Shown in pieces: positions 155 to 19,447 of a stretch of DNA of 64,000 bases (position 1 is the stretch's first letter; the number at the start of each line of letters is the position of its first letter). Both the position numbers and the translations under genes were made by a program. A model generated the notes under the pieces. The model saw only the letters and a list, made by a program, of their open reading frames with translations, did no database searches and was not told the origin of the DNA. Source of the stretch: Eubacterium sp. (GTDB lineage: Bacteria > Bacillota > Clostridia > Lachnospirales > Lachnospiraceae); contig JAETSX010000003.1 of assembly GCA_021769425.1 (NCBI GenBank), positions 69,678 to 133,677 of the forward strand. The letters run 5' to 3'.

Positions 155-901
155 ATGGAAGATCAAGTAACCGTATCTGTGGTTATGCCGGCCTATAATG
201 CCGGAAAGTATATTGCACAGGCCATTGAGTCTGTGCTGTGTCAGGAGGTGCCTCTGGAGCTTCTGGTGATTGATGACTGTTCCGCTGACAATACGGCTGA
301 AATTGTAACCCGGTATGCACAGGATGAAAGAGTGGTATTAATCCGGAATAAGCAGAATCAGGGCGCTGCAAAGAGCCGGAATATAGGAATCCGCCGTGCC
401 CGGGGAACCTATCTTGCATTTCTGGATGCAGATGACTGGTGGCAGCAGGGCAAATTAAAGCTCCAGTGCCGGAAACTGCAGGAAACGGGTCTGGTGTTAT
501 GCTGTACCGGACGGGAGCTGATGAATGCAGACGGCTCGCCCAGAGGGAAAATCATAAGCGCGCCGGAAGTGATTACTTATGGGATGCTGCTCCGGACAAA
601 CAGCATTGCATGTTCTTCGGTTGTGATGCAGACCGAAGCGGCCAGGGAATTCTATATGAGCCATGACGAGCTGCATGAGGATTATATTTTATGGCTGAAG
701 GTTCTGAAAAAATACGGCAATGCCTGCGGAATTGCTGAGCCCATGCTGAAATCCAGAATGAGCCAGGGTGGCAAATCCAGAAATAAACTGAAATCGGCCC
801 GGATGCATTTTGGCGTATACCGCCTGATGGGGATTGGGCGGATTGCGTCCTGTTACTATTTTCTGATGTATATATTTCACGGCATCCGCAAATATATGTG
901 A
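155..901 (+). CDS. Family 2 glycosyltransferase
   Basis: VSVVMPAYNAGKYIAQAIESVLCQ...LLVIDDCSADNT...AFLDADDWW is the classic GT2 N-terminal fold with a DxD motif. GGAG lies upstream of the ATG. Confidence 0.85.
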   Translation: MEDQVTVSVVMPAYNAGKYIAQAIESVLCQEVPLELLVIDDCSADNTAEIVTRYAQDERVVLIRNKQNQGAAKSRNIGIRRARGTYLAFLDADDWWQQGKLKLQCRKLQETGLVLCCTGRELMNADGSPRGKIISAPEVITYGMLLRTNSIACSSVVMQTEAAREFYMSHDELHEDYILWLKVLKKYGNACGIAEPMLKSRMSQGGKSRNKLKSARMHFGVYRLMGIGRIASCYYFLMYIFHGIRKYM

Positions 902-988
902 AGGTTTAGGATCAGTGAGCAAAAAGATGCAGATGCGATCCGCAGTGAAACACGGACAGAACTGCAAATGGAAAGGTGAGGAGTATTT

Positions 989-1765
989 ATGAGAGAAAGA
1001 ATCAAGAACTTTTTCCGTTACCGTTTTCTGCTGGGAGAATTGGTAAAAAAAGGAATTAAACTGAAATACAGAAGATCCTATCTGGGAATTTTGTGGTCAT
1101 TGCTGGAGCCTTTGTTAACCACATGCGTACTGACAATTGTGTTCGGAACCCTTTTCGGCAACAGCGACCCTACGTTCCCGGTTTATATTTTAAGCGGGCG
1201 CCTGCTGTATTCCTTCTTTTCCCAGGGCACCACAGGGGCGCTGAAATCCATTCGGGCCAATGCGTCCATGATTAAGAAGGTGTATGTGCCGAAATATCTC
1301 TATCCTTTGTCCAGCGTCTTGTTTAATTATATTATATTTTTGATTTCCCTGGCAGTATTGATTGTGCTGGCTATGGCTTTTCGGGTGTTTCCGACCTTTT
1401 ATATCCTGTGGACGATCCCCTGTCTGCTGCTTTTGCTGCTGCTTTCTTATGGGGTGGGAATGATTCTGGCCACCATAGGAGTGTTTTTCAGGGATATGGA
1501 ATATCTTTGGAATGTATTGTTAATGCTGGTCATGTATACCTGCGCCATTTTTTATTTTCCGGAAAAGCTGTTAAAAAGCGGCTACGGCTGGATTTTAAAA
1601 TGGAATCCTCTGTACTGCATTATTGCCAATTTCAGGCATGCTGTATTCGGGGAACCAATGCACATGAAAATGTTTCTGTATGCCGCTGGATTCAGCGTTG
1701 CTTCCTTAATTTTGGGGCTGTTTGTCTTTTACAGGAAGCAGGATGAATTCATATTGCAGATATAG
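989..1765 (+). CDS. tagG: ABC-2 type polysaccharide/teichoic-acid export permease (TagG/Wzm-like)
   Basis: LGELVKKGIKLKYRRSYLGILWSLLEPLL opening, about 6 hydrophobic segments and an ATPase gene immediately downstream. The context includes tarIJ and TagF-family genes. Confidence 0.75.
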   Translation: MRERIKNFFRYRFLLGELVKKGIKLKYRRSYLGILWSLLEPLLTTCVLTIVFGTLFGNSDPTFPVYILSGRLLYSFFSQGTTGALKSIRANASMIKKVYVPKYLYPLSSVLFNYIIFLISLAVLIVLAMAFRVFPTFYILWTIPCLLLLLLLSYGVGMILATIGVFFRDMEYLWNVLLMLVMYTCAIFYFPEKLLKSGYGWILKWNPLYCIIANFRHAVFGEPMHMKMFLYAAGFSVASLILGLFVFYRKQDEFILQI

Positions 1766-1784
1766 AGGGAAAAGGAGAAAAAAA

Positions 1785-2522
1785 ATGGCGAAAGAAATAA
1801 TCCGGGCAGAGCATGTGGGCATGAAGTTCAACCTCAGCAAAGAAAAGGTGGACAGTCTGAAAGAATATGTAATCAAGTCCATAAAACGCCAGATGGAATA
1901 CAACGAATTCTGGGCCCTGAAGGATATTAATTTTACCCTGGAAAAAGGGGACCGTCTGGGGATTCTGGGCTTAAACGGGGCAGGAAAAAGCACCCTGCTG
2001 AAAGTGATTGCAGGAGTGTTTAAACCCACGGAAGGAAAAGTTTATAAAAAAGGGAAAATCGCCCCGCTGCTGGAATTGGGGGCAGGATTTGATATGCAGT
2101 ATACCGGTGCAGAAAATATTTATCTCTATGGAGCGGTACTGGGGTACAGCAAGAAATTTATAGATGAAAAATTTGATGAAATTGTAGCATTTTCGGAACT
2201 GAATAAGTTTATCGACGTTCCCCTGAAAAATTATTCCTCCGGCATGAAATCCAGGCTGGGATTTTCCATTGCCACGGTGGTGGCGCCGGAGATCCTGATA
2301 TTGGATGAAGTATTGTCGGTTGGAGACGCAAAGTTCCGAAAGAAAAGCGAAGGCAAAATCATGAGCATGTTTGACAAAGGCGTAACAGTGCTTTTTGTTT
2401 CCCATTCCCTGGAACAGGTCTGCCGTCTGTGCAATAAGGCGGTTATTCTGGATCACGGAACAATAAAATCCTTCGGCGGAATTGATGAGGTGGCGGAGGT
2501 TTACCGGAAGATGCTGGAGTAA
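1785..2522 (+). CDS. tagH: ABC transporter ATP-binding protein (TagH/Wzt-like, short form)
   Basis: Walker A GLNGAGKST, signature YSSGMKSRLGFS and Walker B ILILDEVLSVGD. The ORF is open from 1722, but ATG 1785 (MAKEII) follows GGAGA. Confidence 0.8.
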   Translation: MAKEIIRAEHVGMKFNLSKEKVDSLKEYVIKSIKRQMEYNEFWALKDINFTLEKGDRLGILGLNGAGKSTLLKVIAGVFKPTEGKVYKKGKIAPLLELGAGFDMQYTGAENIYLYGAVLGYSKKFIDEKFDEIVAFSELNKFIDVPLKNYSSGMKSRLGFSIATVVAPEILILDEVLSVGDAKFRKKSEGKIMSMFDKGVTVLFVSHSLEQVCRLCNKAVILDHGTIKSFGGIDEVAEVYRKMLE

Positions 2523-2574
2523 AGCGGCATTTGCAATAGGGCGTAAATTGTGATATATTGGTAAAAATTATGAA

Positions 2575-3615
2575 TTGACGATTACGGAGGAAGAAAAATT
2601 GAAGCTGATTATACAGATACCATGCTATAACGAGGCAGAAACACTGGAAATTGCCTTGAATGATCTGCCTAGGCAGATAGATGGAATCGACGAAATTGAA
2701 TATCTGATTATCAATGACGGCAGCAAGGACAACACCGTAGAGGTGGCAAGAAACTGGGGCGTAAACTATGTGGTGGATCTGAAACGGAATAAGGGGCTGG
2801 CCAAGGGATTTATGGCGGGACTGGACGCCTGCCTTAGAAATGGGGCGGACATTATCGTCAACACAGACGCCGATAACCAGTACTGCGCGGATGATATTGA
2901 GAAAATCGTCCGTCCCATACTGGAAGGGAAAACAGACATCGTCATTGGTGCAAGGCCGGTGGACGATACGGAGCACTGGTCTCCGTTAAAGAAAAAGCTG
3001 CAGCATTTCGGAAGCTGGGTGGTGCGCAAAGCCTCCCGCAGCGATATTCCCGATGCGCCCAGCGGTTTCAGGGCTTACAGCAGAGAAGCTGCCATGCGCC
3101 TGAATGTAGTCAATGAGTATACTTACACCTTAGAAACTATTGTTCAGGCCGGAAGAAGCAAGATTGCCATGGAATCCGTGCCCATCCGCACCAATGCGGA
3201 ACTGCGGCCTTCCCGGCTGTTCAGCAGCATGTTCGGCTATGTGAAGAAATCTATGCTCACAATTTTGAGGGCTTTTATGATGTACCGTCCCCTGATGGTC
3301 TTTTCCGTTATCGGCAGTATTATTTTTGCCGTGGGACTTGCCATCGGCATACGGTTTTTAGTATATTATTTCGGCGGAAACGGCGCAGGCCATATGCAGT
3401 CTTTGATTCTGGCCAGCACGCTGATGCTGTTGGGATTCCAGACCTTTATTGTAGGGCTTCTGGCAGATATTATCTCGGCTAACCGGAAAATATTGGAAGA
3501 TGTTCAATATCATGTCCGAAAACTGGATTTTGATCAAGCTGCGGAAAAAAAGAACGAGGCCAGGGACAGCGGGACTGCCCGGAAGCCGGATACAGATAAG
3601 AACATGGGAAAATAA
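2575..3615 (+). CDS. Membrane-anchored GT2, GtrB/CsbB/DPM1-like polyprenyl-phosphate glycosyltransferase
   Basis: IQIPCYNEAETL...LIINDGSKDNT...NTDADNQY catalytic domain, plus two C-terminal TM helices (LMVFSVIGSIIFAVGLAIGI, LILASTLMLLGFQTFIVGLLADII). The start is TTG and uncertain. Confidence 0.7.
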   Translation: MTITEEEKLKLIIQIPCYNEAETLEIALNDLPRQIDGIDEIEYLIINDGSKDNTVEVARNWGVNYVVDLKRNKGLAKGFMAGLDACLRNGADIIVNTDADNQYCADDIEKIVRPILEGKTDIVIGARPVDDTEHWSPLKKKLQHFGSWVVRKASRSDIPDAPSGFRAYSREAAMRLNVVNEYTYTLETIVQAGRSKIAMESVPIRTNAELRPSRLFSSMFGYVKKSMLTILRAFMMYRPLMVFSVIGSIIFAVGLAIGIRFLVYYFGGNGAGHMQSLILASTLMLLGFQTFIVGLLADIISANRKILEDVQYHVRKLDFDQAAEKKNEARDSGTARKPDTDKNMGK

Positions 3616-3782
3616 AGAAACGGCGCCGGGACTGCCGGAAGGCTGGATGCAGATAAGAACATGGAACAAGAATGAGGAAACGGCGCCGGGACTGCCGGAA
3701 GCCGGATGCAGATAGGAACATGGAACAAGAATGAGGAAACGGCGCCGGGACTGCCCGGAAGCCAGATGCAGAGATAGACACG
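3565..3782. repeat. Tandem repeat, about 3.5 copies of a 59-60 bp unit, starting inside the last codons of the GT2 gene
   Basis: The unit gaaacggcgccgggactgccggaagccggatgcagataagaacatggaacaagaatgag recurs at about 3617, 3677 and 3736. A diverged copy at 3565-3616 encodes the protein tail and stop. Confidence 0.9.
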
Positions 3783-3819
3783 AAAAATATAAGACAGAGA
3801 CAGTCAGGAGGGCTGAAAC

Positions 3820-4530
3820 ATGGTATACGGCGTAATTTTAGCAGGCGGCGTGGGCAGCCGCATGGGAAATGCAGAAAAGCCCAAGCAGTATCTCCAAATC
3901 GGCGAAAAGCCGATTATCATCCATACAGTGGAGAAAATGTATGTCCATCCGGAGATTGAAAAAGTTCTGGTATTATGTCCGGAACAGTGGGTATCCTATA
4001 CAAAAACCCTGTTGAAAAAGTACAGGCTTCCCACCGGGGAGATTGCTGTGCTCAAAGGCGGTTCCACCAGAAACGGAACTATAATGAATGCCATTTCCTA
4101 TATTGAGGAACAGGGAGATTTATCGGAGGATACGATTATTGTAACCCATGATTCAGTCAGGCCCTTTATCACTCACCGGATTATTTCAGAAAATGTGAAA
4201 TATGCCAGGAAATACGGGGCCTGCGATACAGTGATTTCCGCTACGGATACTATTGTGGAAAGCCGTGACGGAGAGGTGATCAGCGATATTCCGGATCGTT
4301 CCAAAATGTACCAGGGGCAGACTCCCCAGAGTTTTTGCGCACTCAAATTGAAAAACTTATATGAAAGCCTGAACGAAGAGGAAAGGAAAATTTTGACGGA
4401 TGCAGCCAAAATTTTTGCCATGAAAGGGGAAAAGGTTTATCTGGTTCAGGGGGAAGTTTCCAATATTAAAATCACCTATCCGTATGATCTGCGGGTAGCG
4501 GAAGCATTGATTAAAGAGGATAGAAAATAA
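3820..4530 (+). CDS. tarI: Ribitol-5-phosphate cytidylyltransferase (IspD/TarI family)
   Basis: VYGVILAGGVGSRMGNAEKPKQYLQIGEKPII cytidylyltransferase signature. It has a TAATG 1-nt overlap with a TarJ-like reductase gene. Confidence 0.8.
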   Translation: MVYGVILAGGVGSRMGNAEKPKQYLQIGEKPIIIHTVEKMYVHPEIEKVLVLCPEQWVSYTKTLLKKYRLPTGEIAVLKGGSTRNGTIMNAISYIEEQGDLSEDTIIVTHDSVRPFITHRIISENVKYARKYGACDTVISATDTIVESRDGEVISDIPDRSKMYQGQTPQSFCALKLKNLYESLNEEERKILTDAAKIFAMKGEKVYLVQGEVSNIKITYPYDLRVAEALIKEDRK

Positions 4531-5549
4531 TGTTAAATGCAGTGTATCGCTTAGTGGCGCCAAGAAGATTTGAAGTGGAATTTACGGAAATAGAATTGCG
4601 GAATGTGATCGTGCGGCCTACCCACCTGTCTATCTGCCGGGCAGATCAAAGATATTACCAGGGCACCCGTCCGGCGGAAGTTTTGGCAAAGAAACTGCCT
4701 ATGGCGCTGATTCATGAAGGAATCGGCCAGGTGGTCTATGATGAAACCGGAGAATATCAGACGGGCCAGCGGGTGGTAATGATCCCCAATACGCCCACAG
4801 AGCCGGATCCTGTCATTGCAGAAAATTATCTGCGCAGCAGCCGGTTCCGGGCCAGCGGGTTTGACGGATTTATGCAGGATTATGTGGAACTGGGACGGGA
4901 CAGGCTGGTGAGCCTTCCGACGGATATTGATTTACGGGTGGCGGCTTTTACAGAGCTGATTACGGTAAGCGTCCATGCCATCAGCAGATTTGACCGGATT
5001 GCCCACGGCAGACGCAGAAAGATAGGCATCTGGGGGGACGGCAACCTGGGATATATTACGGCTCTTTTATTCCATACCATGTTCCCGGACGTGAAGCTGT
5101 TTATTTTCGGCGTAGATGAAAATAAACTGGCGGATTTTGCTTTTGCAGAAGAAACCATTCTGGTCAAAGATATCCCAAAAGATCTGGAAGTGGACCATGC
5201 CTTTGAATGCGTAGGCGGAAACGGCGCCCAGATGGCCATCGATCAAATGATTGACCACATTGCGCCGGAAGGAACCATGGCCCTTTTGGGCGTGTCTGAG
5301 AATCATGTGCCAATCAATACCAGAATGGTGCTGGAAAAGGGCCTGCGCCTCTTTGGAAGCAGCAGAAGCGGCCGGGAGGATTTCGAACGGACCGTATCGC
5401 TGTTTGAGGAAAACCGGGAGTTGGTGGGCAATCTGCAGAACCTCATTGGAAGCGTTATTGAGGTGGGATCCATCGCTGATATGAAGGAAGCCTTTGAAAC
5501 GGATATCCGCAGGGCTTTTGGGAAGACAGTGATGGTCTGGAAGAACTAG
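4530..5549 (+). CDS. tarJ: Ribulose-5-phosphate reductase (Zn-dependent medium-chain dehydrogenase, TarJ-like)
   Basis: MLNAVYRLVAPRRFEV...RPTHLSICRADQRYYQGTR...LIHEGIG matches, from memory, the TarJ N-terminal pattern. The gene is coupled to tarI. Confidence 0.75.
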   Translation: MLNAVYRLVAPRRFEVEFTEIELRNVIVRPTHLSICRADQRYYQGTRPAEVLAKKLPMALIHEGIGQVVYDETGEYQTGQRVVMIPNTPTEPDPVIAENYLRSSRFRASGFDGFMQDYVELGRDRLVSLPTDIDLRVAAFTELITVSVHAISRFDRIAHGRRRKIGIWGDGNLGYITALLFHTMFPDVKLFIFGVDENKLADFAFAEETILVKDIPKDLEVDHAFECVGGNGAQMAIDQMIDHIAPEGTMALLGVSENHVPINTRMVLEKGLRLFGSSRSGREDFERTVSLFEENRELVGNLQNLIGSVIEVGSIADMKEAFETDIRRAFGKTVMVWKN

Positions 5550-5595
5550 TGGGGAGTAAGAATGCATAAGGATATAAGAAAAACAGCGTGAACAC

Positions 5596-6783
5596 ATGGA
5601 TAATAAAGCAGGAAAGAATATAATTCGGGGAATGATCAAGTTTTTGGTATACAAGGTTCTTTTTCCAGGCGTGTATGCCGCCGGAGCGCTTCGGAAAGTG
5701 AGAAAAGGAAAAACGATCTTCGTAGAACTTCACGGCAGTGCCTTAAGCGACAATTTTCGGCTTTTGAAAGAAGAGGCAGAGCAAAAACCAGGGTTTCAGA
5801 TCCGGGAATACTATCTGGATTTTCAGAAAGATTCTCTGTCTTATTACCGCAGATGCCTGGGGCTTTTGTGGGAGGCGTCAAATGCCCGGTATATTTTTCT
5901 CAATGATTCCTGCAATGTGCTGGGGGCTTTCAAAATGAGAAAAGGAAGCCGGATGATCCAGACCTGGCATGCCTGCGGCGCCTTTAAGAAGTGGGGATTC
6001 AGCGCAGCCGATCAGGAATACGGCGAGAGCCGTGAGGAACTTATGAAATATCCCTACCATCGGAATTATACTTTGGTGACTGTCAGCAGCCCGGAGGTGA
6101 TTTGGGCCTATCAGGATGCTTTTCAGGCGCCGGAGGCGGCAGTTCAGGCATTGGGAGTCAGCCGGACGGATGTTTATTTCCGCGAATCTTTCCGCCGGGA
6201 CGCTGAGCGGAAATATTTCAGACAGGTTCCCCAAGGGAACGGGAAAAAATGTATCCTGTATGTGCCCACATTCCGGGGAACCGGCGGGAAGGCAGACAGT
6301 CCGGGGATTTTGGACTATGCGTTTTTGAAACAGAAATTGGGACAGGATTATATCATCATTGAGAAACGCCATCCTTTTGTGAAAGAACCACTGAAATTGG
6401 AGGAATCCCTGAAAGATTTTGCCGTTGAGGACTGCGGATTGGAAATTGCAGAATTGCTCTGCATTGCGGATATCTGCGTAACAGATTATTCTTCTGTGGC
6501 GTTTGAATATTCATTGATGGAACGGCCGATGATATTTCTGGCCTATGATCTGGAAGAATATTTTGATAATCGGGGATTTTATTACGATTATCGGGAATTT
6601 GTGCCGGGTCCTGTGGTGAAAAACAGCGAAGAGCTTGCGGCGGCAGTCAGAAGCATCGGGGAGCAGCCGGAAGAAGCCAGGGAGAGAATTGCCGGGTTCC
6701 GGCAGAAATTTATGTCTTCCTGTGACGGACATGCCACAGAAAGAATCTGGCGGGAGATTGTGAAGCAGGACAACAGGAGCTGA
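5596..6783 (+). CDS. CDP-glycerol/CDP-ribitol polyol-phosphate transferase (TagB/TagF/TarL family)
   Basis: Motifs IQTWHACGAFKKWGF, LYVPTFRG, TDYSSVAFEY and CDGHATERI. Confidence 0.8.
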   Translation: MDNKAGKNIIRGMIKFLVYKVLFPGVYAAGALRKVRKGKTIFVELHGSALSDNFRLLKEEAEQKPGFQIREYYLDFQKDSLSYYRRCLGLLWEASNARYIFLNDSCNVLGAFKMRKGSRMIQTWHACGAFKKWGFSAADQEYGESREELMKYPYHRNYTLVTVSSPEVIWAYQDAFQAPEAAVQALGVSRTDVYFRESFRRDAERKYFRQVPQGNGKKCILYVPTFRGTGGKADSPGILDYAFLKQKLGQDYIIIEKRHPFVKEPLKLEESLKDFAVEDCGLEIAELLCIADICVTDYSSVAFEYSLMERPMIFLAYDLEEYFDNRGFYYDYREFVPGPVVKNSEELAAAVRSIGEQPEEARERIAGFRQKFMSSCDGHATERIWREIVKQDNRS

Positions 6784-6938
6784 ATGGCCGGCAGAATCCA
6801 TCGAATGACTGTCAGCAGGAATTGAATGGCCGGCAGAATCCATCGAATGACTGTCAGCAGGAATTGAATGGCCGGCAGAATCCATCGAATGACTGTCAGC
6901 AGGAATCGAATAGCCGGCAAAATCCATCGAATGTAAGG
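6781..6938. repeat. 42-bp tandem repeat: three perfect copies plus one degenerate partial copy, beginning exactly at the TGA stop of the upstream gene
   Basis: tgaatggccggcagaatccatcgaatgactgtcagcaggaat at 6781, 6823 and 6865, with a diverged copy at 6907-6938. Confidence 0.95.
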
Positions 6939-6951
6939 CAGGTTAGAAAGC

Positions 6952-8082
6952 ATGGGGAATAAGCTGAAAATAAGACAGGCATTGAAGGAATGCCTGAGAA
7001 AATTCATATTGCCTGTGGTATACCATATTTACTGCGTCCGGTATCCTGGCCCGGATCAGCGGCTTATCGTATTTGCCGACGCCCATCACAAGGAGTTTCC
7101 GGAGGATATGCGTCTGCTGAAAGAAGAAATGCAGCGGCGGGGGTACAAAGTTCAGGAACTGGTCCATGATTTTGCGGAAGTCAGCTTTGGGAAAAGCATA
7201 AAGGCGATGCTTTCCTTTCTAAAATATTACGCACAGGCAGGCCTGGTAGTGCTCTGTGATTACTACCTGCCTGTGATTTCCGTAAAAAAGCGGAAAGAAA
7301 CAAAAGTAATCCAGCTTTGGCATGCCTGCGGCGCCTATAAGAAATTTGGTTATGATGCCAGAGATGATTTGCTGTCAGTCAAGGATCAGAATATGTTCCG
7401 GAACTTTGATCTGGTTTCTGTCAGTTCTGAACACTGCAGAGTCGTGTATGCAGATGCCTTTCATCTTCCGTTGGAAAAAGTGCAGGCGTTGGGAGTCAGC
7501 CGGACGGATCGGTATTTTTCAGAATCATTTATGGAAGAATGCAGAAGCCGTTTTTTCAAAGAGTATCCTGAGGCGGCCGGCAGGAAAATTATCCTGTGGG
7601 CGCCTACCTTCCGTCACAATGCAGGGGAGGGAACGCTGTTTGGCGCAGAAGCCATAGACAGCCTTTGTGAAAAGCTTTCCGGGGAATGGTTTGTTATCCG
7701 GAAAGTTCATCCCCACCTGGAGAAAAAGATGGCGGCGTCTAACTGCAGAATTCCCACGGAACAGCTCTATGCGGCGGCGGATTTGCTGATTACCGATTAT
7801 TCTTCGGTAATTTTTGACTTTGCGCTGACAGGAAAGCCGATTCTGATTTATGCGCCGGATCGGACTCAATATGAAAAAGAACGGGGGTTTTACCTGGAGC
7901 TGGAGGAGCTTCCGGCACGGGTGGTCACAGATGGGGAGGAACTGGCAGAAGTAATTTCCCGGGGGGAATATAAAACGGCATCTGAGAAGTATGAGAAGTT
8001 TATAAAAAATCAGCTGCAGATGTGTGACGGACATGCCACCAGCCGGATTGCAGATTATATCGCAGATATGCAGGGCATGTGA
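6952..8082 (+). CDS. CDP-glycerol/ribitol polyol-phosphate transferase (TagF family)
   Basis: Motifs IQLWHACGAYKKFGY, LWAPTFRH, TDYSSVIFDF and CDGHATSRI. Confidence 0.8.
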   Translation: MGNKLKIRQALKECLRKFILPVVYHIYCVRYPGPDQRLIVFADAHHKEFPEDMRLLKEEMQRRGYKVQELVHDFAEVSFGKSIKAMLSFLKYYAQAGLVVLCDYYLPVISVKKRKETKVIQLWHACGAYKKFGYDARDDLLSVKDQNMFRNFDLVSVSSEHCRVVYADAFHLPLEKVQALGVSRTDRYFSESFMEECRSRFFKEYPEAAGRKIILWAPTFRHNAGEGTLFGAEAIDSLCEKLSGEWFVIRKVHPHLEKKMAASNCRIPTEQLYAAADLLITDYSSVIFDFALTGKPILIYAPDRTQYEKERGFYLELEELPARVVTDGEELAEVISRGEYKTASEKYEKFIKNQLQMCDGHATSRIADYIADMQGM

Positions 8083-8159
8083 AAACAGGAGAAGGAAACA
8101 GCTGCACGACCGGAATCGCATTTTTTACAGAAGCGGCGGCTGAGATGCAGGAGGAGAAA

Positions 8160-11100
8160 ATGTCAAAGGATAAAAAGAAACCGGGCCGGATTCCCACTCT
8201 TTCCATGATGAAAAAAATGAGATCAGGAACTTTAGAAGCTGAGGATCTGGAGTCCTTTCCGAAAAACAACAGATGGGCTTTTAATGCAGGAAGGACATTT
8301 GCAGGAAATCCCAAATATCTGTTCATCTACATCAATAAATACCGAAAGGATATTGACGCCTATTGGCTGTGCGACAATGAGGAAACCGTGGAATATATCC
8401 GAAAGCTGGGCTATAAAGCCTACACTTTTGTAGACGGGGAAGCACATCGGCTGGAAACCCAGACCGGTGTTTATGTAGTGGAACAGGTGAAGGAAAATAT
8501 TCCGGAGCGGATGTCAGAGGTAAAATATCTGAATCTGTATCATGGAGTGGGGTGCAAGTCCATAGAGCGGAGAGTGAATACTGGTTTTTTAAACGAGAGG
8601 ATTATCGGAAAATATATAAAATATAATCAGTTTTATAGTGACAGGCAACTATTTCTTGTGACATCTCCTTTGATGGAAAAGCACTTTATCTATCAGTGTG
8701 GTCTAAAAAAGAATCAGGTAGTTAGGGGGGGATATCCTCGCTGTATGTATCAGAAATATTGTGATAAAGTGGATACTTTTGATCATGATATCCGATCTAG
8801 AAAAGGACTTGAATCAGATACGAGGATTGTTGCTTATGTGCCGACTTATAGAGATAATGCGCCTCAAGGATTTATGAGTCTCGCAATTCCGAATATGGAA
8901 CGTTTGATTCAGAAGCTTGAGGAGAAAAATATGTTAATGATTTTCAAGATGCATCCCCTAATTCTGGAAGATTATGAGTATTTAAAGCTGAAGGAAAAAT
9001 ATCAGGATCATCCAAGGCTTTTGTTTTGGAATAACCAGGAAGATTTCTACGAGATATTTGAGGATATTGAGGTGGGAATTATAGATTATTCTTCTATTTT
9101 TTATGATATGCTGGCAGGAGGAACCAAATATTTTATTCGATATTTCTTTGATTATAAAGATGGAAAATCTTTTCGGGATATGGTATATGATTTAGAGGAA
9201 ATGACCTGCGGAAAAATGTGCAGAAATTTTGATTCTCTGTTAGAAGCGCTGGATTCCTACGAAGAGGATGACAAACAGGACAGAGAGAGAATTGAAAAAT
9301 TATTTTGGGAATATGACCATAAGGGCTCGATGGATGAGATTATCAATGCCGCCCTGGAATTTGAGCCGGAGCCGGAGCCGCTGCCCACTTTGTATACCTT
9401 TGATATTTTTGATACGTTAATTTCACGGAAGGTATTGGAGCCGGAAGGGATTTTCTACCAGGTAAAAGAGAGAATGGAAGTCTCTGAATTGGAGTTTCCA
9501 TCCTTTTTCATGCAGAATTATCCCCAGAAAAGGCAGGAGGCAGAGTCAAATGTCCGGGAATGGTACCGCAAAACCCTGGAACTGCGTCCGGATGCCAGAA
9601 GGGAAATCCATTTTGAAGAGATCTTTGAGCGGATGGCAAAAGTGTATCACCTGACAGAAGAACAGACGAATGCCCTGATGGAGTGGGAACTGGAGGCAGA
9701 GTATGAGAGCAGCATCCCCATTCCAAGGGCAGTTTCCTATGTAAAAGACTTGATACAGAAGAGAGAAACAGTCTGCCTGATCAGCGACATGTACCTGAGC
9801 CGGGAGTTTATACAGAAACTTCTTGTAAAAGCAGATCCGGCTCTGGGGGAACTTCCGTTGTTTCTGTCCAGTGAATACGGCGTACAGAAAAGCACGGGGT
9901 TATTGTACCTGGAAGTATACCGGAGTTTTGAGACCTATATGTTCGGCGCATGGATTCATCACGGAGATAACCGGAAGGCCGACGGGACTTTTGCAAAGAA
10001 ATTAAATATTACCACAGTGCTGAGAGAGCGTCCGGAATTTAATGAGTATGAATGGAAGCTTGCGTCCCAGATTGGAACCGGCGATGCCTTTAAGACAGCG
10101 GCGCTTTTGGCAAGATTCCGGGAAAGTAACGGAAAACGGAAAGACTATTATGCTTACGGACATATATCTATGTACTTTGTTCCCTATATCAGCTGGGTCC
10201 TGGGGCATGCCATAGAGCATGGGACGAAATGCCTGTATTTTATTTCCCGTGACGGCTATCAGCTGAAGCGGATTGCAGACAGAATTATAGAGAAGAAGAA
10301 TCTGCCTGTCCGGACCAAATATATCTACGGTTCCAGAAGGGCCTGGAGGATTCCTTCGCTGATTACAGAACTGGATAAGGAATTCTTCTCGAAATTCGGC
10401 AACTTTGTCAATATAAAATCTTATGATAAGATGCTGAATGCCCTTAATATGGAAGAAAAAGATTTCCAGCAGATTTTCCCTGATTTAGCCTATTTGAAAG
10501 ATGCAGGCGAGATCACGAAAGAAATCCGGGAGTCTTTGATTATCACATTTTCCAATTCAGAGCCTTATCGCCGGTATATTCTGGATAAGTCAGCCAGAGA
10601 TCGGGGGATTGTGTTGGACTATCTGCGGCAGGAAATTAATTTCGAAGAGAAATTTTCATTTGTGGAATATTGGGGCAGAGGGTATACCCAGGACTGTACC
10701 GCCCGTTTGCTGGAAGCGGCATGTGGGACGAAATGCCCGGCGCCTTTTTATTATATGAGAAGCATCTACAGCAGCGAGGAGAACCGGATTCGATATAATT
10801 TTACCACGGCGTCCAATTCTCTGATTTTTGTGGAGGCAATTTTTGCCAATATTCCCTACAAAAGCGTAGAGCGGTATCAGCCTGGGGAAAATGGAAAGAT
10901 TTTGCCGGTTCTTGAGCCTGCGGACTGCGATATGGAACTGTTTCATGCCATGGAACATCGGCTTTTGCAGTTCGTGGATGACTTTTACGGCCTTGAGCTT
11001 AAGGATGCGGAGAATCTGGAGAAAATGCTTCAGAAAGTGTCCGTTGAATATTTTGAGGAGCATCAGGAGGATGAGGTGTTTACCAGATGCCTTGCTCCGC

Positions 11101-12509
11101 TGATGGATTCCTATACCATGTATGACGCCAAAAGGGAGTATGCCCCGGCCTTTACCGACGAGATGGCGGACGGGCTGATCCGGGAGAATCCCAAGTCAGA
11201 TTATACCAGTTCCCTGGAAATGAGCCTGGCAAGATCGGAGAAGCGGTTGGCGGACAAGGTGAGATATATTGTGGAAGATGTGCCGGAACTTCGGCGGGAG
11301 GGGGATAAGAAAACGGCGAAAATTCTGGCAAGAAAGGAAGAAAACCTGCTGGCTCCCTATAAACTGCAGCGGCATAAATGGAAATCTCTGTATTTTCAGG
11401 CAACTTACCAGAAATATGCCATGCATCCCATAGAGAAAGGGAAAGTGATCATCTTTACCAACGATTCCCCCACGGATCGGGATGAGTACTGGAGTCTGGA
11501 ACAGGAATTGAAGAAGCTGGGGAACTTGAAGATTCTCCGGTATAAGAAAAGCGCTTTTTATGGAAAGGTTATCAAAGAGATGGCTACTGCAGAGTATGTT
11601 TTCATCAACCGCCATATTGAATTGATGAGCCTTTTAAAATTCCGAAAAGGCACCTATGTGGTTCAGTTGGGAGAGTATGCCTTTTCTCTGGAATGTTTCG
11701 GCAGGGGCATGCATTTCCCGGGATATTTGAAGGATTCCAGAGATTGGAATGACCGATTAATGAGAAACGATTATGATTTGATCTGCGCTGCTTCAGAGGC
11801 CATGAAGAAGATCTATGGGGCGTCATTTACTGTAAAAAGAAAGGGAATGGTTCAGGCAGTGGGAAGCTGCTGTACCGATATTTATTTTTCAGAAGAATTT
11901 CGGGAAGAAGCCAGAAAAAGCCTGGAGGAATTGTTTCCAGCGGCCAGGGGTAAGAAAATCATTGTGTATCTGCCCCAATACCGGCATCGGGTGAAGGGAT
12001 GCCGGGTGTTGGAATTTCTGGATATCCGGAAGCTGGAGAAGGCCCTTGGAAAAGAATATGTGATGGTGACGGATTACCGGACGCCTGTAGGAATGGACAG
12101 TTATCCCATGTCAGAGGATTTGCGGGAATTTTTCTGTGACGCAACCAATGAGATGAGCATCCGCCGGCTGATTGCAGCAGGAGATGTTTTTGTGGGAGAT
12201 TACAGGAATACTTTCTTCGAGTCATTTTTGCGGAGGAAGCCGGTGTTTCTAACGGCCGATGACTATGAGGAATACACCAGGGAGCGTGATTATAATTTTG
12301 CTTATGAAGAGATCTTATCGGCTCCGGTGATTGGGGACGCGGAAGATTTGATCTGGCAGCTCCGACATCTGGAAACTTATGATTACGGGCGCTTGGAACA
12401 GTTCTGTGAAAAGTATTTAGGCGCCTGCGACGGTCATGCGGCAGAACGTGTGCTGGGATTAAAAGAGGGATTAATGAGACAGAGGAAGAGATATGGATTG
12501 GAAGTTTAG
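8160..12509 (+). CDS. Giant multidomain protein: TagF-like module, HAD-like hydrolase module, about 450 aa unassigned, then a second (degenerate) TagF-like module
   Basis: N-terminal module: YLNLYHGVGCKSIE, AYVPTYRD, IDYSSIFYDM. Middle: TLYTFDIFDTLISRK (HAD DxDxT). C-terminal module: VVQLGEYAFSLECFG, VYLPQYRH, VGDYRNTFFE, CDGHAAERV. The ORF is open from GTG 8079; ATG 8145 or 8160 follows AGGAGGAG. Confidence 0.7.
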   Translation: MSKDKKKPGRIPTLSMMKKMRSGTLEAEDLESFPKNNRWAFNAGRTFAGNPKYLFIYINKYRKDIDAYWLCDNEETVEYIRKLGYKAYTFVDGEAHRLETQTGVYVVEQVKENIPERMSEVKYLNLYHGVGCKSIERRVNTGFLNERIIGKYIKYNQFYSDRQLFLVTSPLMEKHFIYQCGLKKNQVVRGGYPRCMYQKYCDKVDTFDHDIRSRKGLESDTRIVAYVPTYRDNAPQGFMSLAIPNMERLIQKLEEKNMLMIFKMHPLILEDYEYLKLKEKYQDHPRLLFWNNQEDFYEIFEDIEVGIIDYSSIFYDMLAGGTKYFIRYFFDYKDGKSFRDMVYDLEEMTCGKMCRNFDSLLEALDSYEEDDKQDRERIEKLFWEYDHKGSMDEIINAALEFEPEPEPLPTLYTFDIFDTLISRKVLEPEGIFYQVKERMEVSELEFPSFFMQNYPQKRQEAESNVREWYRKTLELRPDARREIHFEEIFERMAKVYHLTEEQTNALMEWELEAEYESSIPIPRAVSYVKDLIQKRETVCLISDMYLSREFIQKLLVKADPALGELPLFLSSEYGVQKSTGLLYLEVYRSFETYMFGAWIHHGDNRKADGTFAKKLNITTVLRERPEFNEYEWKLASQIGTGDAFKTAALLARFRESNGKRKDYYAYGHISMYFVPYISWVLGHAIEHGTKCLYFISRDGYQLKRIADRIIEKKNLPVRTKYIYGSRRAWRIPSLITELDKEFFSKFGNFVNIKSYDKMLNALNMEEKDFQQIFPDLAYLKDAGEITKEIRESLIITFSNSEPYRRYILDKSARDRGIVLDYLRQEINFEEKFSFVEYWGRGYTQDCTARLLEAACGTKCPAPFYYMRSIYSSEENRIRYNFTTASNSLIFVEAIFANIPYKSVERYQPGENGKILPVLEPADCDMELFHAMEHRLLQFVDDFYGLELKDAENLEKMLQKVSVEYFEEHQEDEVFTRCLAPLMDSYTMYDAKREYAPAFTDEMADGLIRENPKSDYTSSLEMSLARSEKRLADKVRYIVEDVPELRREGDKKTAKILARKEENLLAPYKLQRHKWKSLYFQATYQKYAMHPIEKGKVIIFTNDSPTDRDEYWSLEQELKKLGNLKILRYKKSAFYGKVIKEMATAEYVFINRHIELMSLLKFRKGTYVVQLGEYAFSLECFGRGMHFPGYLKDSRDWNDRLMRNDYDLICAASEAMKKIYGASFTVKRKGMVQAVGSCCTDIYFSEEFREEARKSLEELFPAARGKKIIVYLPQYRHRVKGCRVLEFLDIRKLEKALGKEYVMVTDYRTPVGMDSYPMSEDLREFFCDATNEMSIRRLIAAGDVFVGDYRNTFFESFLRRKPVFLTADDYEEYTRERDYNFAYEEILSAPVIGDAEDLIWQLRHLETYDYGRLEQFCEKYLGACDGHAAERVLGLKEGLMRQRKRYGLEV

Positions 12510-14259
12510 GTTAGAGGAAGCAAGAATTGAGGATTATATGCTGGTGTTGGGGGTGGCGGCGGAAGGCCCTTACGATGTAAAAGTACGCTCGCCCAAGGTG
12601 GTGGCAGTACTCAGGAAAACAGGGGATAACCGTAGATTTCCCATCAGTGTGAATTCGTATTTTCCGCTGGAGGATATGGATACCTGCATGGTGTATGCGG
12701 AGTATCCGGTGAATATAAGAAGCATATTTGTGGGAGGAACCAGGGAAGATATTGTGATCAGCTTTGATTTTATTTATGGGGATACGCATATCTGCAATAT
12801 TCCCCTGGAGCTGTCCCGTGCGCCTGAGGCGCTGGAGGCACAGGGGCTGTCATTCCGGCAGGACACGTCGGAACTGGTTCTTAAGGGGAAAGGAAGCGGG
12901 TCTGAATTTTTACAGAAAGCTTGGAAAACCTGCCAGGCAATCCTTGGGCCCATCCATCAGTTATTGACCCATGTGATAGCGGCGCTGCTGCTTCCCTGGT
13001 TTTTTCTGGATGCGGTGGCCTCCATTTTGTTTGATGTCAGTAAAACATATCCCAGGAATATGGGAAGCCAGTTCCACCGTTTTTTTGCCCATATCAGCTG
13101 GTACCATTCCAGATTCTGTAAATATGAATTTGGGTTGACCGGAATTAAGATGGGATTTGTGAAATTCTTTTTCCTTCTGGGGCATCTTTTACCCGTCAAA
13201 AAGAACCGGGTGTTCTTTTTGTCCAGCCGGCGGGATGATATGACAGGTAATTTTTCTTTTCTGTATGATAAGATGAAAAAGGAGCCTGTGGCGGATATGA
13301 AATGGGTATTGGAGCCCAGGGAAATTGCGGCTATGCCGTTAAAAAGCATGGCCAGAATCGGTTATTATGCAGCCACTTCCAGAGTAATTCTCATTGACGA
13401 CTACACACCGGTAATTTCCAGGCTGAAGCTTCGGAAAAGATCGAAGCTTATCCAGCTCTGGCATGCCTGCGGGGCTTTTAAGACTTTCGGATTCTCCCGT
13501 ACCGGCAAGCGGGGCGGCCCGAAACAGGACAGCCTGGATCACAGGGATTATGATTATGCCATTGTAAGCTCCTCGGAGATCCGGCAGTTCTATGCAGAAG
13601 GGTTCGGGATTGCCCTGGATAAGGTGGTTGCCACCGGGGTTCCCCGGACGGATGTGTTTTTTGACAAACAATATAAAAAAGATATTGTGGAGAAGCTGCA
13701 GCAGCAGTATCCTGTCATAAAGGGCAAGAAAGTGATTTTATTTGCGCCCACTTTCCGGGGATACGGGAAGCTGTCAGCCGACTATCCCAAAAGCCAGTTT
13801 GATCCGGTGGAATTTATGGAGCAGATTCCGGAGGATTATGTGCTGATTATCAAGCACCATCCCTTTGTGGCAATGGAATATGAGATTGAAAAAAAGTGGC
13901 GGGATCGGATTCTGGATTTGTCCGCAGAGTCGGAAATCAACGATCTGCTGTTTGTGACGGATCTTCTGATTACCGATTATTCTTCTGTGGTATTTGAAGC
14001 GGCATTGCTCAATATTCCGATGCTGATGTATGCCTTTGATTTAAGGCAGTACATTGCGGGCAGGGATTTTTATTATGATTATGAATTTTTTGTGCCGGGC
14101 AAAATTGTGGAAAGCTTTCCGGCCCTGGTGGAAGCGGTGTGCAAAGAAGATTATGAAGCGGAGAAGCTGGCGCAGTTTCGGACTAGATTTTTCGATGATT
14201 TAGACGGAAAGTCCACGGAAAGAGTAGTGAAATTGATTTATGGCCTGATTCAGTCTTAG
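12493..14259 (+). CDS. TagF-family polyol-phosphate transferase with an extra ~300-aa N-terminal region containing hydrophobic segments
   Basis: Motifs IQLWHACGAFKTFGF, LFAPTFRG and TDYSSVVFEA. It overlaps the upstream gene by 17 nt. Confidence 0.75.
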   Translation: MDWKFRLEEARIEDYMLVLGVAAEGPYDVKVRSPKVVAVLRKTGDNRRFPISVNSYFPLEDMDTCMVYAEYPVNIRSIFVGGTREDIVISFDFIYGDTHICNIPLELSRAPEALEAQGLSFRQDTSELVLKGKGSGSEFLQKAWKTCQAILGPIHQLLTHVIAALLLPWFFLDAVASILFDVSKTYPRNMGSQFHRFFAHISWYHSRFCKYEFGLTGIKMGFVKFFFLLGHLLPVKKNRVFFLSSRRDDMTGNFSFLYDKMKKEPVADMKWVLEPREIAAMPLKSMARIGYYAATSRVILIDDYTPVISRLKLRKRSKLIQLWHACGAFKTFGFSRTGKRGGPKQDSLDHRDYDYAIVSSSEIRQFYAEGFGIALDKVVATGVPRTDVFFDKQYKKDIVEKLQQQYPVIKGKKVILFAPTFRGYGKLSADYPKSQFDPVEFMEQIPEDYVLIIKHHPFVAMEYEIEKKWRDRILDLSAESEINDLLFVTDLLITDYSSVVFEAALLNIPMLMYAFDLRQYIAGRDFYYDYEFFVPGKIVESFPALVEAVCKEDYEAEKLAQFRTRFFDDLDGKSTERVVKLIYGLIQS

Positions 14260-14280
14260 GCCGATGGAGGATATAAAACC

Positions 14281-16146
14281 ATGGAACGTGTGAGAGAAAT
14301 TTTTTCTTCCGATAAATATAACAGAATTATTTTATTTGTGGTATTGCTGCTGGGATTTTTGGTTCTGGGGCTTCCGCTGACAGTGACTTATATTACAGAC
14401 GAAACAGGGACGATGGCCAATGCCGCTTTTCTGGCTGGGATGGATTGGTCAGTGTTTATCGACAAGACGGGGGGATACTATTATAAATACGGGCAGGCGC
14501 TTTTCTGGTATCCCATTTTTGCATTGGTGAAGGATTCTTTTCTCATATACAAATTGATTATGGCGGAGAACGCCGTTTTTCTGAGCCTGGAGGGGGTGTG
14601 CATTTATCAGATCCTCCGGAAACACTTGAAGGTGGAGAGCAAGGTTCAGTGTATGCTGGCATCCGCGGTTACGGCGATTACTCCTGCGGCAGCGCTGTAC
14701 AGCCTTTTTGCCCGGGCGGATGTTGTGCTGGTGGCATTTTCTGTCTATGTGCTGTATTTTCTGATGGAAGCCTGGAGCAGCCGGAATGATCGGAAGAAAC
14801 ATGCAGTCAATACTTTTTTGTCTGTGCTGTGTACGGTGTATATCTCCATGTGCCACAGCAGAGGCATTGTATGGGTGATTGCAGTGACCATGGTAGTTTT
14901 GGTGATGCATTTCTTTACCAGGGAAAAGATGGTGAATTACTGGGTTTACGGCGGTTCTTTGATTGGATTGATGGGAATTGACCGGATTTTAACCAGGTTT
15001 TTTAAGTCAAATATCTGGGGGGATAATATCAGGCATGCTACGGCAGAGAGTTTTGATTTCGAGAAATTGGGCGGAATTTTTACCGGGGACGGCATTAAGA
15101 CCATGGTGAAGCTGGGAATGGGATGGATTTTTAATTTCATGACCAGTTCCATGGGGCTGGCAATTGCGGGAATATTTGCCGCTCTGGCAGTTATCCTGCT
15201 GTTTGTACGAAGGAAAACAGAGATAAAGCCGGAAGAAGCAATTCTGTGCGGCTATGGTTTTTTGATATTTGCAGGTTCTATGGCGCTGGGCATGCTCTTT
15301 TTCTTTCCCCATGTTTTCAAGAATTACTATGAGGGCTCTGCGTCCCGGGTGGATCGGCTGGTGTACGACAGGTATCTGGCCGGCAGCATTGGGATTGCAG
15401 TTTTAATGGGTATTTATTTTTTTGTTTACCGGAAAGATATTTTTCAGAAAGTAAGCCGTATTGTTTTGGCGGCGCTGGCAGTGTTTGTTTTATTTTTCTA
15501 TAAAAAATTTATCAGTATTTATATGGATCATAAGGAATTTTCTATCCGCAACAGCATTGCATCCAATCTATTTGTGGATAACGGCTTTCCCGGGAATGAT
15601 GCGTCGAAATATGACAATATGTCGGGGGGCCTGTTTTATGGCGGTCTGTTTGCGGCGGCCGTATTGATTCTGTTTCTTTTTGCAGCCTACCTGTCCTGGC
15701 GGGAGTGTGCTCTGGCGGGAATGTGCGCAGTGTTTGCCGTAAGCCTTGGGGTGAATTATGCAAAGATGCGCCTGGCCTGTGATATCAACGTAAGGGCGAA
15801 GGTTCAGGATTTGCAGGATTATGTGCCGCAGATTCGGGAGGCGCCGGAAGAATTCCGCTATGTCTATGTGGATAATAGCGCAAAACGGATGAAGCCTCTG
15901 CAGTTGATTTTTAAAGAGTTTCAGGTGTATGTCCGTAACAGTTTTCCGGAGGGGGAGGCAGGAAACTATTTTATAATCTCTCTGCCGGATGAATTCAATA
16001 AGAAGATAGACAGAAGCGATTGCTACCAGTTTGCAGATTTTGATTATCTCAATGCGAAGTATTATGTGATTTATGTAAAAGGAGAAAAACTGCGTCGGGA
16101 ACTGGAACAAATGGGCCTGGAGTTGGTGAAATTAGGAACAGGCTGA
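14281..16146 (+). CDS. Large polytopic membrane protein, possibly a GT-C-type (ArnT/PMT/YfhO-like) extracytoplasmic glycosyltransferase
   Basis: More than 10 hydrophobic segments, an acidic motif YITDETG just after TM1, and a soluble C-terminal ~130 aa. No family motif recognised with certainty. Confidence 0.35.
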   Translation: MERVREIFSSDKYNRIILFVVLLLGFLVLGLPLTVTYITDETGTMANAAFLAGMDWSVFIDKTGGYYYKYGQALFWYPIFALVKDSFLIYKLIMAENAVFLSLEGVCIYQILRKHLKVESKVQCMLASAVTAITPAAALYSLFARADVVLVAFSVYVLYFLMEAWSSRNDRKKHAVNTFLSVLCTVYISMCHSRGIVWVIAVTMVVLVMHFFTREKMVNYWVYGGSLIGLMGIDRILTRFFKSNIWGDNIRHATAESFDFEKLGGIFTGDGIKTMVKLGMGWIFNFMTSSMGLAIAGIFAALAVILLFVRRKTEIKPEEAILCGYGFLIFAGSMALGMLFFFPHVFKNYYEGSASRVDRLVYDRYLAGSIGIAVLMGIYFFVYRKDIFQKVSRIVLAALAVFVLFFYKKFISIYMDHKEFSIRNSIASNLFVDNGFPGNDASKYDNMSGGLFYGGLFAAAVLILFLFAAYLSWRECALAGMCAVFAVSLGVNYAKMRLACDINVRAKVQDLQDYVPQIREAPEEFRYVYVDNSAKRMKPLQLIFKEFQVYVRNSFPEGEAGNYFIISLPDEFNKKIDRSDCYQFADFDYLNAKYYVIYVKGEKLRRELEQMGLELVKLGTG

Positions 16147-16181
16147 TAGAAAAACAAAGGAGTTACGAAAGGAGAACCGTT

Positions 16182-19382: not shown

Positions 19383-19395
19383 CTTTAGAAACGAT

Positions 19396-19447
19396 AATCC
19401 CCCGATTGTAGCAAGATACAGTCGGGGGATTGGCTGTTTCTTTATTC
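19396..19447 (+). terminator. Rho-independent terminator of the beta-helix gene
   Basis: 10-bp stem aatcccccga/tcgggggatt (19396-19431) followed by a T-rich tail. Confidence 0.7.

Follow-up and report, generated by a model that had tools for sequence, protein, structure and literature searches.

In a stretch of 64,000 nucleotides from a Eubacterium sp. of the Lachnospiraceae (assembly GCA_021769425.1, contig JAETSX010000003.1, positions 69,678 to 133,677; hereafter the window) we analysed a gene at 8160..12509 on the + strand that encodes a protein of 1,449 amino acids (aa) with four modules. The first three correspond by sequence to the enzymes of Bcs3, the capsule polymerase of Haemophilus influenzae type b (Hib). 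The fourth is a TagF/TarL-type domain with a glycosyltransferase-B (GT-B) fold, which has lost both catalytic histidines and is nevertheless kept under purifying selection. In our judgement the protein is probably a Gram-positive polymerase of the Bcs3 type, with a predicted ribosyl-ribitol-phosphate product, that carries a non-catalytic, TarL-derived module with a putative role in tethering, membrane docking or processivity. The Bcs3 core and the existence of Gram-positive homologues have already been published. In the literature searched, no description was found of a His-less TagF/TarL module fused to Bcs3-type polymerases, or of any pseudo-TagF domain.

The open reading frame (ORF) at 8079..12509 (+) was uninterrupted, with zero internal stops. 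The likely start is the ATG at 8160, which lies 7 nt behind an AGGAGG ribosome-binding site; the mechanically called ORF begins with a GTG at 8079, merely the first possible start. All residue numbers of the window protein are counted from the Met at this ATG. A preliminary description of the same DNA, made from the letters alone, had proposed a single polypeptide here. This agrees with the absence of internal stops and with the presence of the fusion as a single ORF in 52 of 80 species-representative genomes.

The Bcs3-type polymerase core

Pfam matched the family PF04464 (Glyphos_transf) twice in the protein, at aa 40-397 and in the last 390 aa, the latter match alone scoring 118.9 bits against a gathering cut-off of 22.1. 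Nothing convincing was found by Pfam between the two stretches, and the two enzymes that lie there, CrpP and CriT, went unrecognised by Pfam and NCBIfam alone; only the sequence search of the Protein Data Bank (PDB) revealed them both. In that search aa 34-1037 aligned end to end with Hib Bcs3 (PDB 8a0c, 9h50) over approximately 1,000 residues (E 1.9e-195).

Bcs3 was described by Cifuente et al., 2023 (PMC10299916). It consists of CroT (residues 1-373), a TagF-like ribitol-5-phosphate transferase; CrpP (residues 374-591), a HAD-like phosphatase in which the canonical DxD is reduced to its first Asp; CriT (residues 592-1036), a ribofuranosyl-5-phosphate transferase that depends on phosphoribosyl pyrophosphate (PRPP), has a new glycosyltransferase fold and has had its structure solved; a polymer-binding SH3b domain (residues 1037-1115); and a predicted amphipathic helix bundle (residues 1116-1215). 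As judged from the alignment, aa 34-1037 of the window protein are a full-length homologue of Bcs3 with the enzymes CroT, CrpP and CriT in the same order.

Conservation of the catalytic residues was determined in an alignment of 121 sequences, consisting of the query and 120 homologues. These represented the best 120 clusters from a search of 5.8 billion proteins that gave 447 homologues at E <= 1e-10. Homology and invariant residues define the CroT-like module (aa 34-400; 8259..9359, +), a TagF-like GT-B CDP-ribitol:ribose ribitol-5-phosphate transferase. Its H128, G131, K133 and H265 correspond to H96, G99, K101 and H233 of Bcs3 and were invariant in 121/121 sequences; G131 is the Gly that marks donors of ribitol-phosphate rather than glycerol-phosphate. 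The CrpP-like HAD phosphatase (aa 405-625; 9372..10034, +) was assigned on the same two grounds. D415 corresponds to the Bcs3 nucleophile D386 and K577 to the motif III lysine K548, and both were invariant, as were S542, D603 and D608. The CriT-like PRPP-dependent ribofuranosyl-5-phosphate transferase (aa 626-1037; 10035..11270, +), assigned by homology, has R697/D698, S725/R726/R730, E836, T843 and E892 in the places of Bcs3 R679/D680, S707/R708/R712, E818, T825 and E874. These residues were conserved as well, position 836 being E in 107 sequences and D in 14. In all, every residue that was mutated or named in PMC10299916 was invariant or nearly so.

These results change the layout of TagF, HAD, unknown and TagF that had been proposed before. 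Since aa 34-1037 align end to end with Bcs3, the stretch of about 450 aa that was then left unassigned is CriT. The N-terminal module, taken earlier for an active primase or polymerase, indeed looks active; it is no generic primase but CroT, transferring ribitol-5-phosphate onto ribose. The HAD module, previously called phosphatase-like, is a CrpP-type ribose-5-phosphate phosphatase. Its motif is D415-I-F-D418-T419, i.e. DxxDT and not literally DxDxT as had been written. The motifs quoted at that time were all present (YLNLYHGVGCK at aa 123-133, containing H128; FDIFDTLISRK at aa 414-424; VVQLGEYAFSLE at aa 1167-1178). The homology and the locus context together predict that the protein would make poly(ribosyl-ribitol-phosphate) from PRPP and CDP-ribitol.

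Loss of the catalytic histidines in the C-terminal module

The C-terminal module (aa 1088-1449; 11421..12506, +) is a TagF/TarL-type GT-B domain in which both catalytic His and the polyol-binding loop are gone and the fold is kept. Searched with phmmer, it was closest to TarL (PDB 8va1, E 5.5e-24) and next to TagF. A profile of 107 sequences of its family also matched three TagF/TarL-like paralogues encoded in the window at full length (E 1e-57 to 1e-77). The module is therefore derived from TarL and is no copy of CroT.

In TarL, H300 is the base and is stacked on W299, H433 contacts the alpha-phosphate, the G303-A304-F305 loop binds ribitol, and P395 and a Glu bind cytidine and ribose; the H300N and H433A variants both have negligible activity (Li et al. 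2024, PMC10901376). The preliminary description had given the His of the WH motif as the proposed catalytic base of TagF. The residue numbering in the sources is not uniform. The ribose-binding Glu is given as E497 in the text of PMC10901376, and the deposited 8va1 sequence has E479 as the Glu of DYSSLIYE. Likewise the title of PDB 3l7m gives the TagF variant as 'H548A', and both the chain itself and PMC11666461 have H584.

In the window module, aa 1167-1178 read VVQLGEYAFSLE, which places G1171-E1172 (codons 11670..11675, +) opposite W299-H300 of TarL and W443-H444 of TagF. At the aligned site the three neighbouring paralogues read MIQTWHACGAFK, LIQLWHACGAFK and VIQLWHACGAYK, all of the pattern xIQxWHACGA(F/Y)K, as had been noted before for IQxWHACGAxK. 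The alignment of G1171-E1172 with W-H was obtained in three ways: with phmmer against TarL 8va1, with the 107-sequence profile against the paralogues, and with hmmalign. A profile-profile alignment with the protein's own N-terminal module was discarded for this purpose; it covered the C-terminal Rossmann half only (probability 96.7%), so that the equivalence rests on TarL and the window paralogues.

The second essential His is lost as well. TarL H433, in K-M-H-P, aligns to T1308 in 'DYRTP', and the codons R1307-T1308 (12078..12083, +) lie opposite TarL M432-H433 (TagF H584). The polyol-binding loop has also disappeared, with YAFSLE in place of A-x-G-A-F-K, and it was not conserved in the family; in scoring this loop, GAF was taken as the type for ribitol and PL as that for glycerol. 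The cytidine and ribose pocket is partly kept. TarL P395, R398, D472-Y473 and the ribose-binding Glu correspond to P1272, R1275, D1347-Y1348 and E1354, of which P1272 was invariant in the 107 family members, E1354 present in 104/107 and R1275 in 79/107. The strings LPQYRH (aa 1271-1276), GDY (aa 1346-1348) and CDGHA (aa 1423-1427) were located too. Thus the earlier observation that this module lacks the His of the WH motif and keeps PxYR, DY and CDGHA was correct, and the loss of the second His had been missed.

The same state was found throughout the family. The residue opposite the catalytic His was E (26), D (17), R (12), K (11) or S (8), with others including Q, N and P, among the 107 members, and no column anywhere in the C-terminal module had His in more than 30% of them. 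As the His-less state is common to essentially all 107 homologous clusters, the missing His in the window protein is not due to chance. There was no consensus at the position of the second His. Some subgroups also lack the Arg of P-x-x-R ('YLPKA--') and have DY changed to DC. With few exceptions the near-invariant residues of the module are shared with active TarL-like enzymes, and only Y1083, R1335, G1346 and C1423 are specific to it.

Fold, selection and the linking helix

A long basic helix (aa 1038-1087; 11271..11420, +) joins CriT to the C-terminal module. AlphaFold2 modelling of the helix and the module, with a 24-sequence alignment, gave a 46-residue helix followed by a complete GT-B fold, with a mean predicted local distance difference test (pLDDT) of 90.5 and a predicted template modelling score (pTM) of 0.89. 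In a Foldseek search the model of the module was closest to TarL (E 3e-21, TM-score 0.66) and TagF (TM-score 0.71), followed by Cps3D and the CroT of Bcs3. A larger model of aa 626-1449 (824 aa; pLDDT 90.7, pTM 0.60) consisted of two confident bodies on a continuous helix of about 60 residues. The length of the linking helix thus ranged from approximately 45 to 60 residues by model, and it spans about aa 1028-1087 in the 824-aa model. The helix has a net charge of +6 (family mean +3), and its Y1083 is invariant. It aligns with the alpha4 membrane helix of TarL, where R191 lies opposite K1075 and F199 opposite Y1083. The C-terminal module was less acidic than the catalytic domains in 91/107 members.

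The ratio of nonsynonymous to synonymous substitution rates (dN/dS), calculated for the window protein against three close relatives, was 0.07-0.09 in the C-terminal module and 0.04-0.06 in the three enzymes. The module evolves faster than the catalytic domains, with a mean identity of 30% versus about 50% and near-invariant columns making up 6% versus 18-25%, which is typical of a binding or structural domain. No frameshifts or stops were found in the fused ORF of 52 species-level genomes. By these hallmarks of sequence and predicted fold, i.e. a kept fold, loss of both catalytic His and purifying selection, the module is a probable pseudo-enzyme, as the preliminary description had supposed.

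Distribution of the fusion

Among the best 120 clusters, 106 were four-module proteins of 1,424-1,880 aa and 14 were core-only proteins of 1,025-1,079 aa, e.g. in Clostridium botulinum. The fusion was encoded as a single ORF in 52 of 80 GTDB species-representative loci, belonging to several families of Clostridia. Cultured carriers include Petralouisia muris, Anaerobutyricum hallii DSM 3353, Anaerofustis stercorihominis and Coprococcus ammoniilyticus. A separate pseudo-TagF gene adjoining the core-only genes was sought among the same 80 loci and none was found. Since core-only genes have no such gene beside them, the fusion is no artefact of assembly or gene calling, and the possibility of a mis-assembly, which had been raised as an objection to the fusion, is thereby removed. 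There was also no sign of compensation. Another TagF-like ORF was found within 10 kb in 19/32 fused loci and 5/16 core-only loci, the fused loci counted being the 32 with at least 6 kb on both flanks.

From a tblastn impression, Staphylococcus simiae had at first been taken for a further carrier of the fusion, and this was rejected, as the locus actually has a TarL-like gene of 584 aa and, behind it, a core-only gene of 1,060 aa. In this locus (L060, strain CCUG 51256) the core-only Bcs3 homologue stands directly after tarI, tarJ and the TarL-like gene.

In variants of 1,830-1,880 aa, two tandem TagF modules follow the Bcs3-type core and both are His-less. They include the clusters P0039, P0082, P0095, P0109 and P0115 and a 1,882-aa ORF in Coprococcus ammoniilyticus (L023). 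P0039 alone stands for 1,774 member sequences, so the tandem form is common in public data. One relative of 1,438 aa (P0042) was an exception: its module at this site is fully canonical and apparently active (LWHGPGAFK, KWHP, PTYR, TDYSS). It follows that an active TagF module can be fused at that place, and P0042 may have arisen by a fusion of its own or may show the ancestral condition.

When 1.84 billion representatives were searched with a profile, proteins of approximately 790-860 aa were also detected, in which a TagF-like module lacking both His comes after a TarL-like one that is intact (WHGCGAFK, K-H-H-P). These include P0122-P0135, P0140, P0152, P0154 and P0155. An 819-aa ORF of this intact plus His-less type was also seen in locus L005 (8542..11000), directly upstream of a fused Bcs3-like gene. 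In ten of these tandem proteins of roughly 800 aa the second module was compared with two profiles; that of the pseudo modules scored better than that of the active ones in 9/10, with modest margins, and P0122 favoured the active profile. Taken together, the sequences point to dead TagF modules as a recurring addition to polyol-phosphate polymerases.

Possible role of the C-terminal module

In the mechanism that we propose, CriT would use PRPP to place ribofuranose-5-phosphate on the ribitol at the chain end, CrpP would strip the 5-phosphate, and CroT would add ribitol-5-phosphate from CDP-ribitol made by the adjacent TarI and TarJ. The predicted product is a poly(ribosyl-ribitol-phosphate) wall teichoic acid, which would be exported via the adjacent TagGH. 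The fourth module would be a TarL-derived GT-B domain no longer able to transfer polyol-phosphate, and together with the helix it would stand in for SH3b and for the membrane helices at the C-terminus of Bcs3. It may hold the anionic chain or the lipid-linked primer and keep the polymerase at the membrane, allowing long-chain processive synthesis.

The likeness to Bcs3 lies in the CroT-CrpP-CriT order in one chain, the conserved catalytic residues and ribitol-type Gly, and the adjacent CDP-ribitol genes. The window protein differs in having no SH3b (DUF5776) domain and no amphipathic helix bundle; no SH3b/DUF5776 domain was detected in it by Pfam, in which PF04464 was the sole match. Instead, it has the long helix and the His-less TarL-like GT-B module. 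The setting also differs, being a Gram-positive wall teichoic acid locus with TagGH in the window and a group 2 capsule locus in the case of Bcs3. With TarL and TagF (PDB 8va1, 3l7i-m; PF04464) the C-terminal module shares the GT-B fold and the preceding long helix (Foldseek TM-score 0.66-0.72). In TarL numbering it keeps R290, G358, D363, P395, R398, D472-Y473, the ribose-binding Glu and G549. It differs from them in lacking W299-H300, H433, the GAF loop and the N-terminal Ig-like domain, and in being fused behind another polymerase.

Cps7A/CpsA of Actinobacillus pleuropneumoniae is a TagF-like PF04464 transition transferase with a long electropositive helix, and its inactive mutants still stimulate long-chain synthesis by the polymerase (PMC11666461). 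It thus provides a precedent for a non-catalytic role of a TagF-like protein, whose presence rather than activity stimulates long chains. However, Cps7A is a separate, catalytically active, Gram-negative protein, whereas the window module is, to judge from its residues, dead and is covalently fused.

The SH3b domain of Bcs3 occupies the same position as the C-terminal module, immediately after the HB-3 element of CriT. It is required for Bcs3 activity and tethers the growing chain, and some published homologues are without it. The folds are unrelated, with a beta-barrel of about 80 aa in Bcs3 as opposed to a GT-B domain of about 360 aa here, and binding by the pseudo-TagF module is putative. 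A further non-catalytic GT-B protein is GtfB, a pseudo-glycosyltransferase that partners the streptococcal O-GlcNAc transferase GtfA and recognises the acceptor on its behalf. In comparison with the C-terminal module, GtfB belongs to a different family, acts on a serine-rich protein and is a separate subunit.

We favour tethering, docking or processivity because of the position shared with SH3b, the precedent of Cps7A, the basic helix and the less acidic module. The acceptor- or polymer-binding domain that had been guessed earlier thus remains the best reading of the module, ligand binding itself being a prediction; the role as a ruler that had been suggested alongside is conjectural. Several points weigh against it. 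The pTM of 0.60 gives no confident placement of the C-terminal module relative to the catalytic basket. The helix (aa 1040-1087), though basic, has a weak hydrophobic moment of 0.1-0.4, and a classic monotopic amphipathic anchor is therefore not supported. The near-invariant residues, including P1272 and E1354, are shared with active enzymes, so that conservation cannot separate polymer binding, nucleotide binding and maintenance of the fold. The aromatic residues proposed for the acceptor groove of TarL, F280 and Y285, are not conserved in the module and align to H1152 and S1157. Core-only homologues of approximately 1,030 aa exist with neither SH3b nor the TagF module, which means that the C-terminal module is not universally required. 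In addition, the TagF-like enzyme Cps7A is active with Y94 in place of the first His, its second His being kept (PMC11666461). The structure of the polymer is a predicted one, and binding of a ligand or of the membrane by the C-terminal module is putative.

Of the alternatives, two seem to us unlikely to about the same degree. The first is a non-catalytic nucleotide-binding domain, which would bind CDP-ribitol or cytidine monophosphate and regulate or feed the neighbouring active sites. It would account for the retained TarL pocket for cytidine and ribose (P1272, R1275, D1347-Y1348 and E1354) and for the family-specific R1335, present in 103/107 members where active enzymes have A, E or N. However, the pocket residues are determinants of the fold across the whole family, the subgroups with 'YLPKA--' and DC have lost parts of the pocket, and H433, the contact to the alpha-phosphate, is gone. 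The tandem duplication also fits a binding or spacer role better than a sensor.

The second is a protein-protein scaffold that would pair with active TarL-like enzymes, or form homo-oligomers via the long helix, and so unite primases and polymerase. The best matches of the C-terminal module are the neighbouring paralogues (E 1e-77 for that of 395 aa), TarL is a tetramer and TagF dimerises via the equivalent helix region. Also, the stop of the big gene overlaps the start of the 588-aa TarL-like gene, and an active TarL-like module is joined to a His-less one in the proteins of about 800 aa. On the other hand, 13 of the 32 fused loci have no other TagF-like gene nearby, and the TarL tetramer relies on the N-terminal Ig-like domain, which is absent here.

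It is quite improbable that the module is still an enzyme with a non-canonical chemistry, for example a primase using E1172 as general base. E or D stands at the His position in 43/107 members, the window protein among them, the TagF-like transferase Cps7A is active although it has Tyr for the first His, and the relative P0042 has a fully canonical module at the same place. Yet Cps7A retains the second His and the window module has neither; other members have R, K, S, Q, N or P at the site; the W and the polyol-binding loop are gone, as are the donor motifs in some subgroups; and the single substitutions H300N and H433A each leave TarL essentially dead. A decaying relic of a former fusion with no present function, which would agree with the lower identity (30% against about 50%), the fewer near-invariant columns (6% against 18-25%) and the existence of core-only homologues, is strongly disfavoured by the dN/dS of 0.07-0.09, the zero frameshifts or stops in 52 species-level genomes, the confidently predicted fold and the duplication of the module in some lineages.

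Implications

The paper on Bcs3 left open whether its Gram-positive homologues lie in wall teichoic acid clusters, and stated that the polymerases of complex wall teichoic acids were unidentified (PMC10299916). The window puts a Bcs3-type polymerase inside a complete locus for ribitol-type wall teichoic acid. Our results suggest that a large group of gut Clostridia may have, in place of the essential SH3b tether, a catalytically dead copy of the polymerase fold of the same protein family. Should tethering or chain length be under its control, the module would offer a handle on processivity in teichoic acid and capsule polymerases, and it could aid the in vitro enzymatic production of defined ribosyl-ribitol-phosphate chains.

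A wider proposal, which we put forward tentatively and hold to be doubtful, is that the His-less TagF module is a general, undescribed accessory domain of Gram-positive polyol-phosphate polymerases. It would occur after Bcs3-type cores, as tandem copies and perhaps also after plain TarL-like enzymes, tethering the chain or primer and setting processivity or chain length. As part of the same proposal, its carriers among the abundant gut Clostridia (such as Anaerobutyricum hallii and Lachnospiraceae) would display a teichoic acid resembling the Hib capsule and could be a source of cross-reactive antibodies against the Hib polysaccharide, polyribosylribitol phosphate (PRP). Common commensals may thus carry a Hib-like surface polymer, with a possible link to immunity. 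Natural cross-reactivity of anti-PRP antibodies is a subject of the older literature, for which our literature search gave no usable primary source.

The wall teichoic acid locus and other genes of the window

The big gene is one of a series of genes that all point the same way (155 to 19382, +) and end at a strong terminator with a 16-bp stem (19395-19432). Besides a GT2 glycosyltransferase gene, the series contains the permease and ATPase genes of a TagG/TagH-type ABC-2 exporter (989..2522, +), a polyprenyl-phosphate glycosyltransferase-like GT2 (2575-3615), and tarI, encoding a D-ribitol-5-phosphate cytidylyltransferase, with a tarJ-like zinc alcohol dehydrogenase gene (3820..5549, +). The tarI product scored 358.8 bits in NCBIfam against a cut-off of 166, and the products of tarI and tarJ together supply CDP-ribitol. 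Two short TagF/TarL-like paralogues of 395 and 376 aa, with WHACGAF/YK and K-x-H-P intact, are encoded upstream of the big gene (5596..8082, +). Downstream lies the gene of a 588-aa TarL-like paralogue with both His intact (12493..14259, +), whose ATG overlaps the stop of the big gene by 17 nt. The remaining products are a 621-aa PMT_2-like multi-pass membrane protein (14281-16146) and, last in the cluster, a 1,066-aa protein with seven Beta_helix/NosD repeats and a Big_6 domain (16182-19382). The gene order was identical in the nearest genomes, which were metagenome-assembled genomes of mouse-gut Lachnospiraceae (91% identity) and Petralouisia muris (88%).

The GT2 at 2575-3615 and the PMT_2-like protein at 14281-16146 flank the polymerase genes, a pairing typical of extracytoplasmic glycosylation of teichoic acid. 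The 1,066-aa beta-helix protein may be a secreted protein that binds or degrades glycans.

Further along the window, at 25589-27886, a 765-aa fusion is encoded that combines a polysaccharide pyruvyl transferase with FrhB/FdhB-like N- and C-terminal domains. A separate second glycan locus extends from about 28200 to 62000, with a GC content of 0.31-0.38 versus approximately 0.45-0.48. It encodes two UDP-sugar dehydrogenases, a Polysacc_synt_2 dehydratase, a DegT aminotransferase, a PglD-like acetyltransferase and a Wzx-type flippase. The gene direction flips at about 48.6-55 kb, and the locus may have been acquired horizontally. Set among these polysaccharide genes, at 31593-33200, is the gene of a predicted AAA-ATPase_like and PDDEXK_9 nuclease-family protein.

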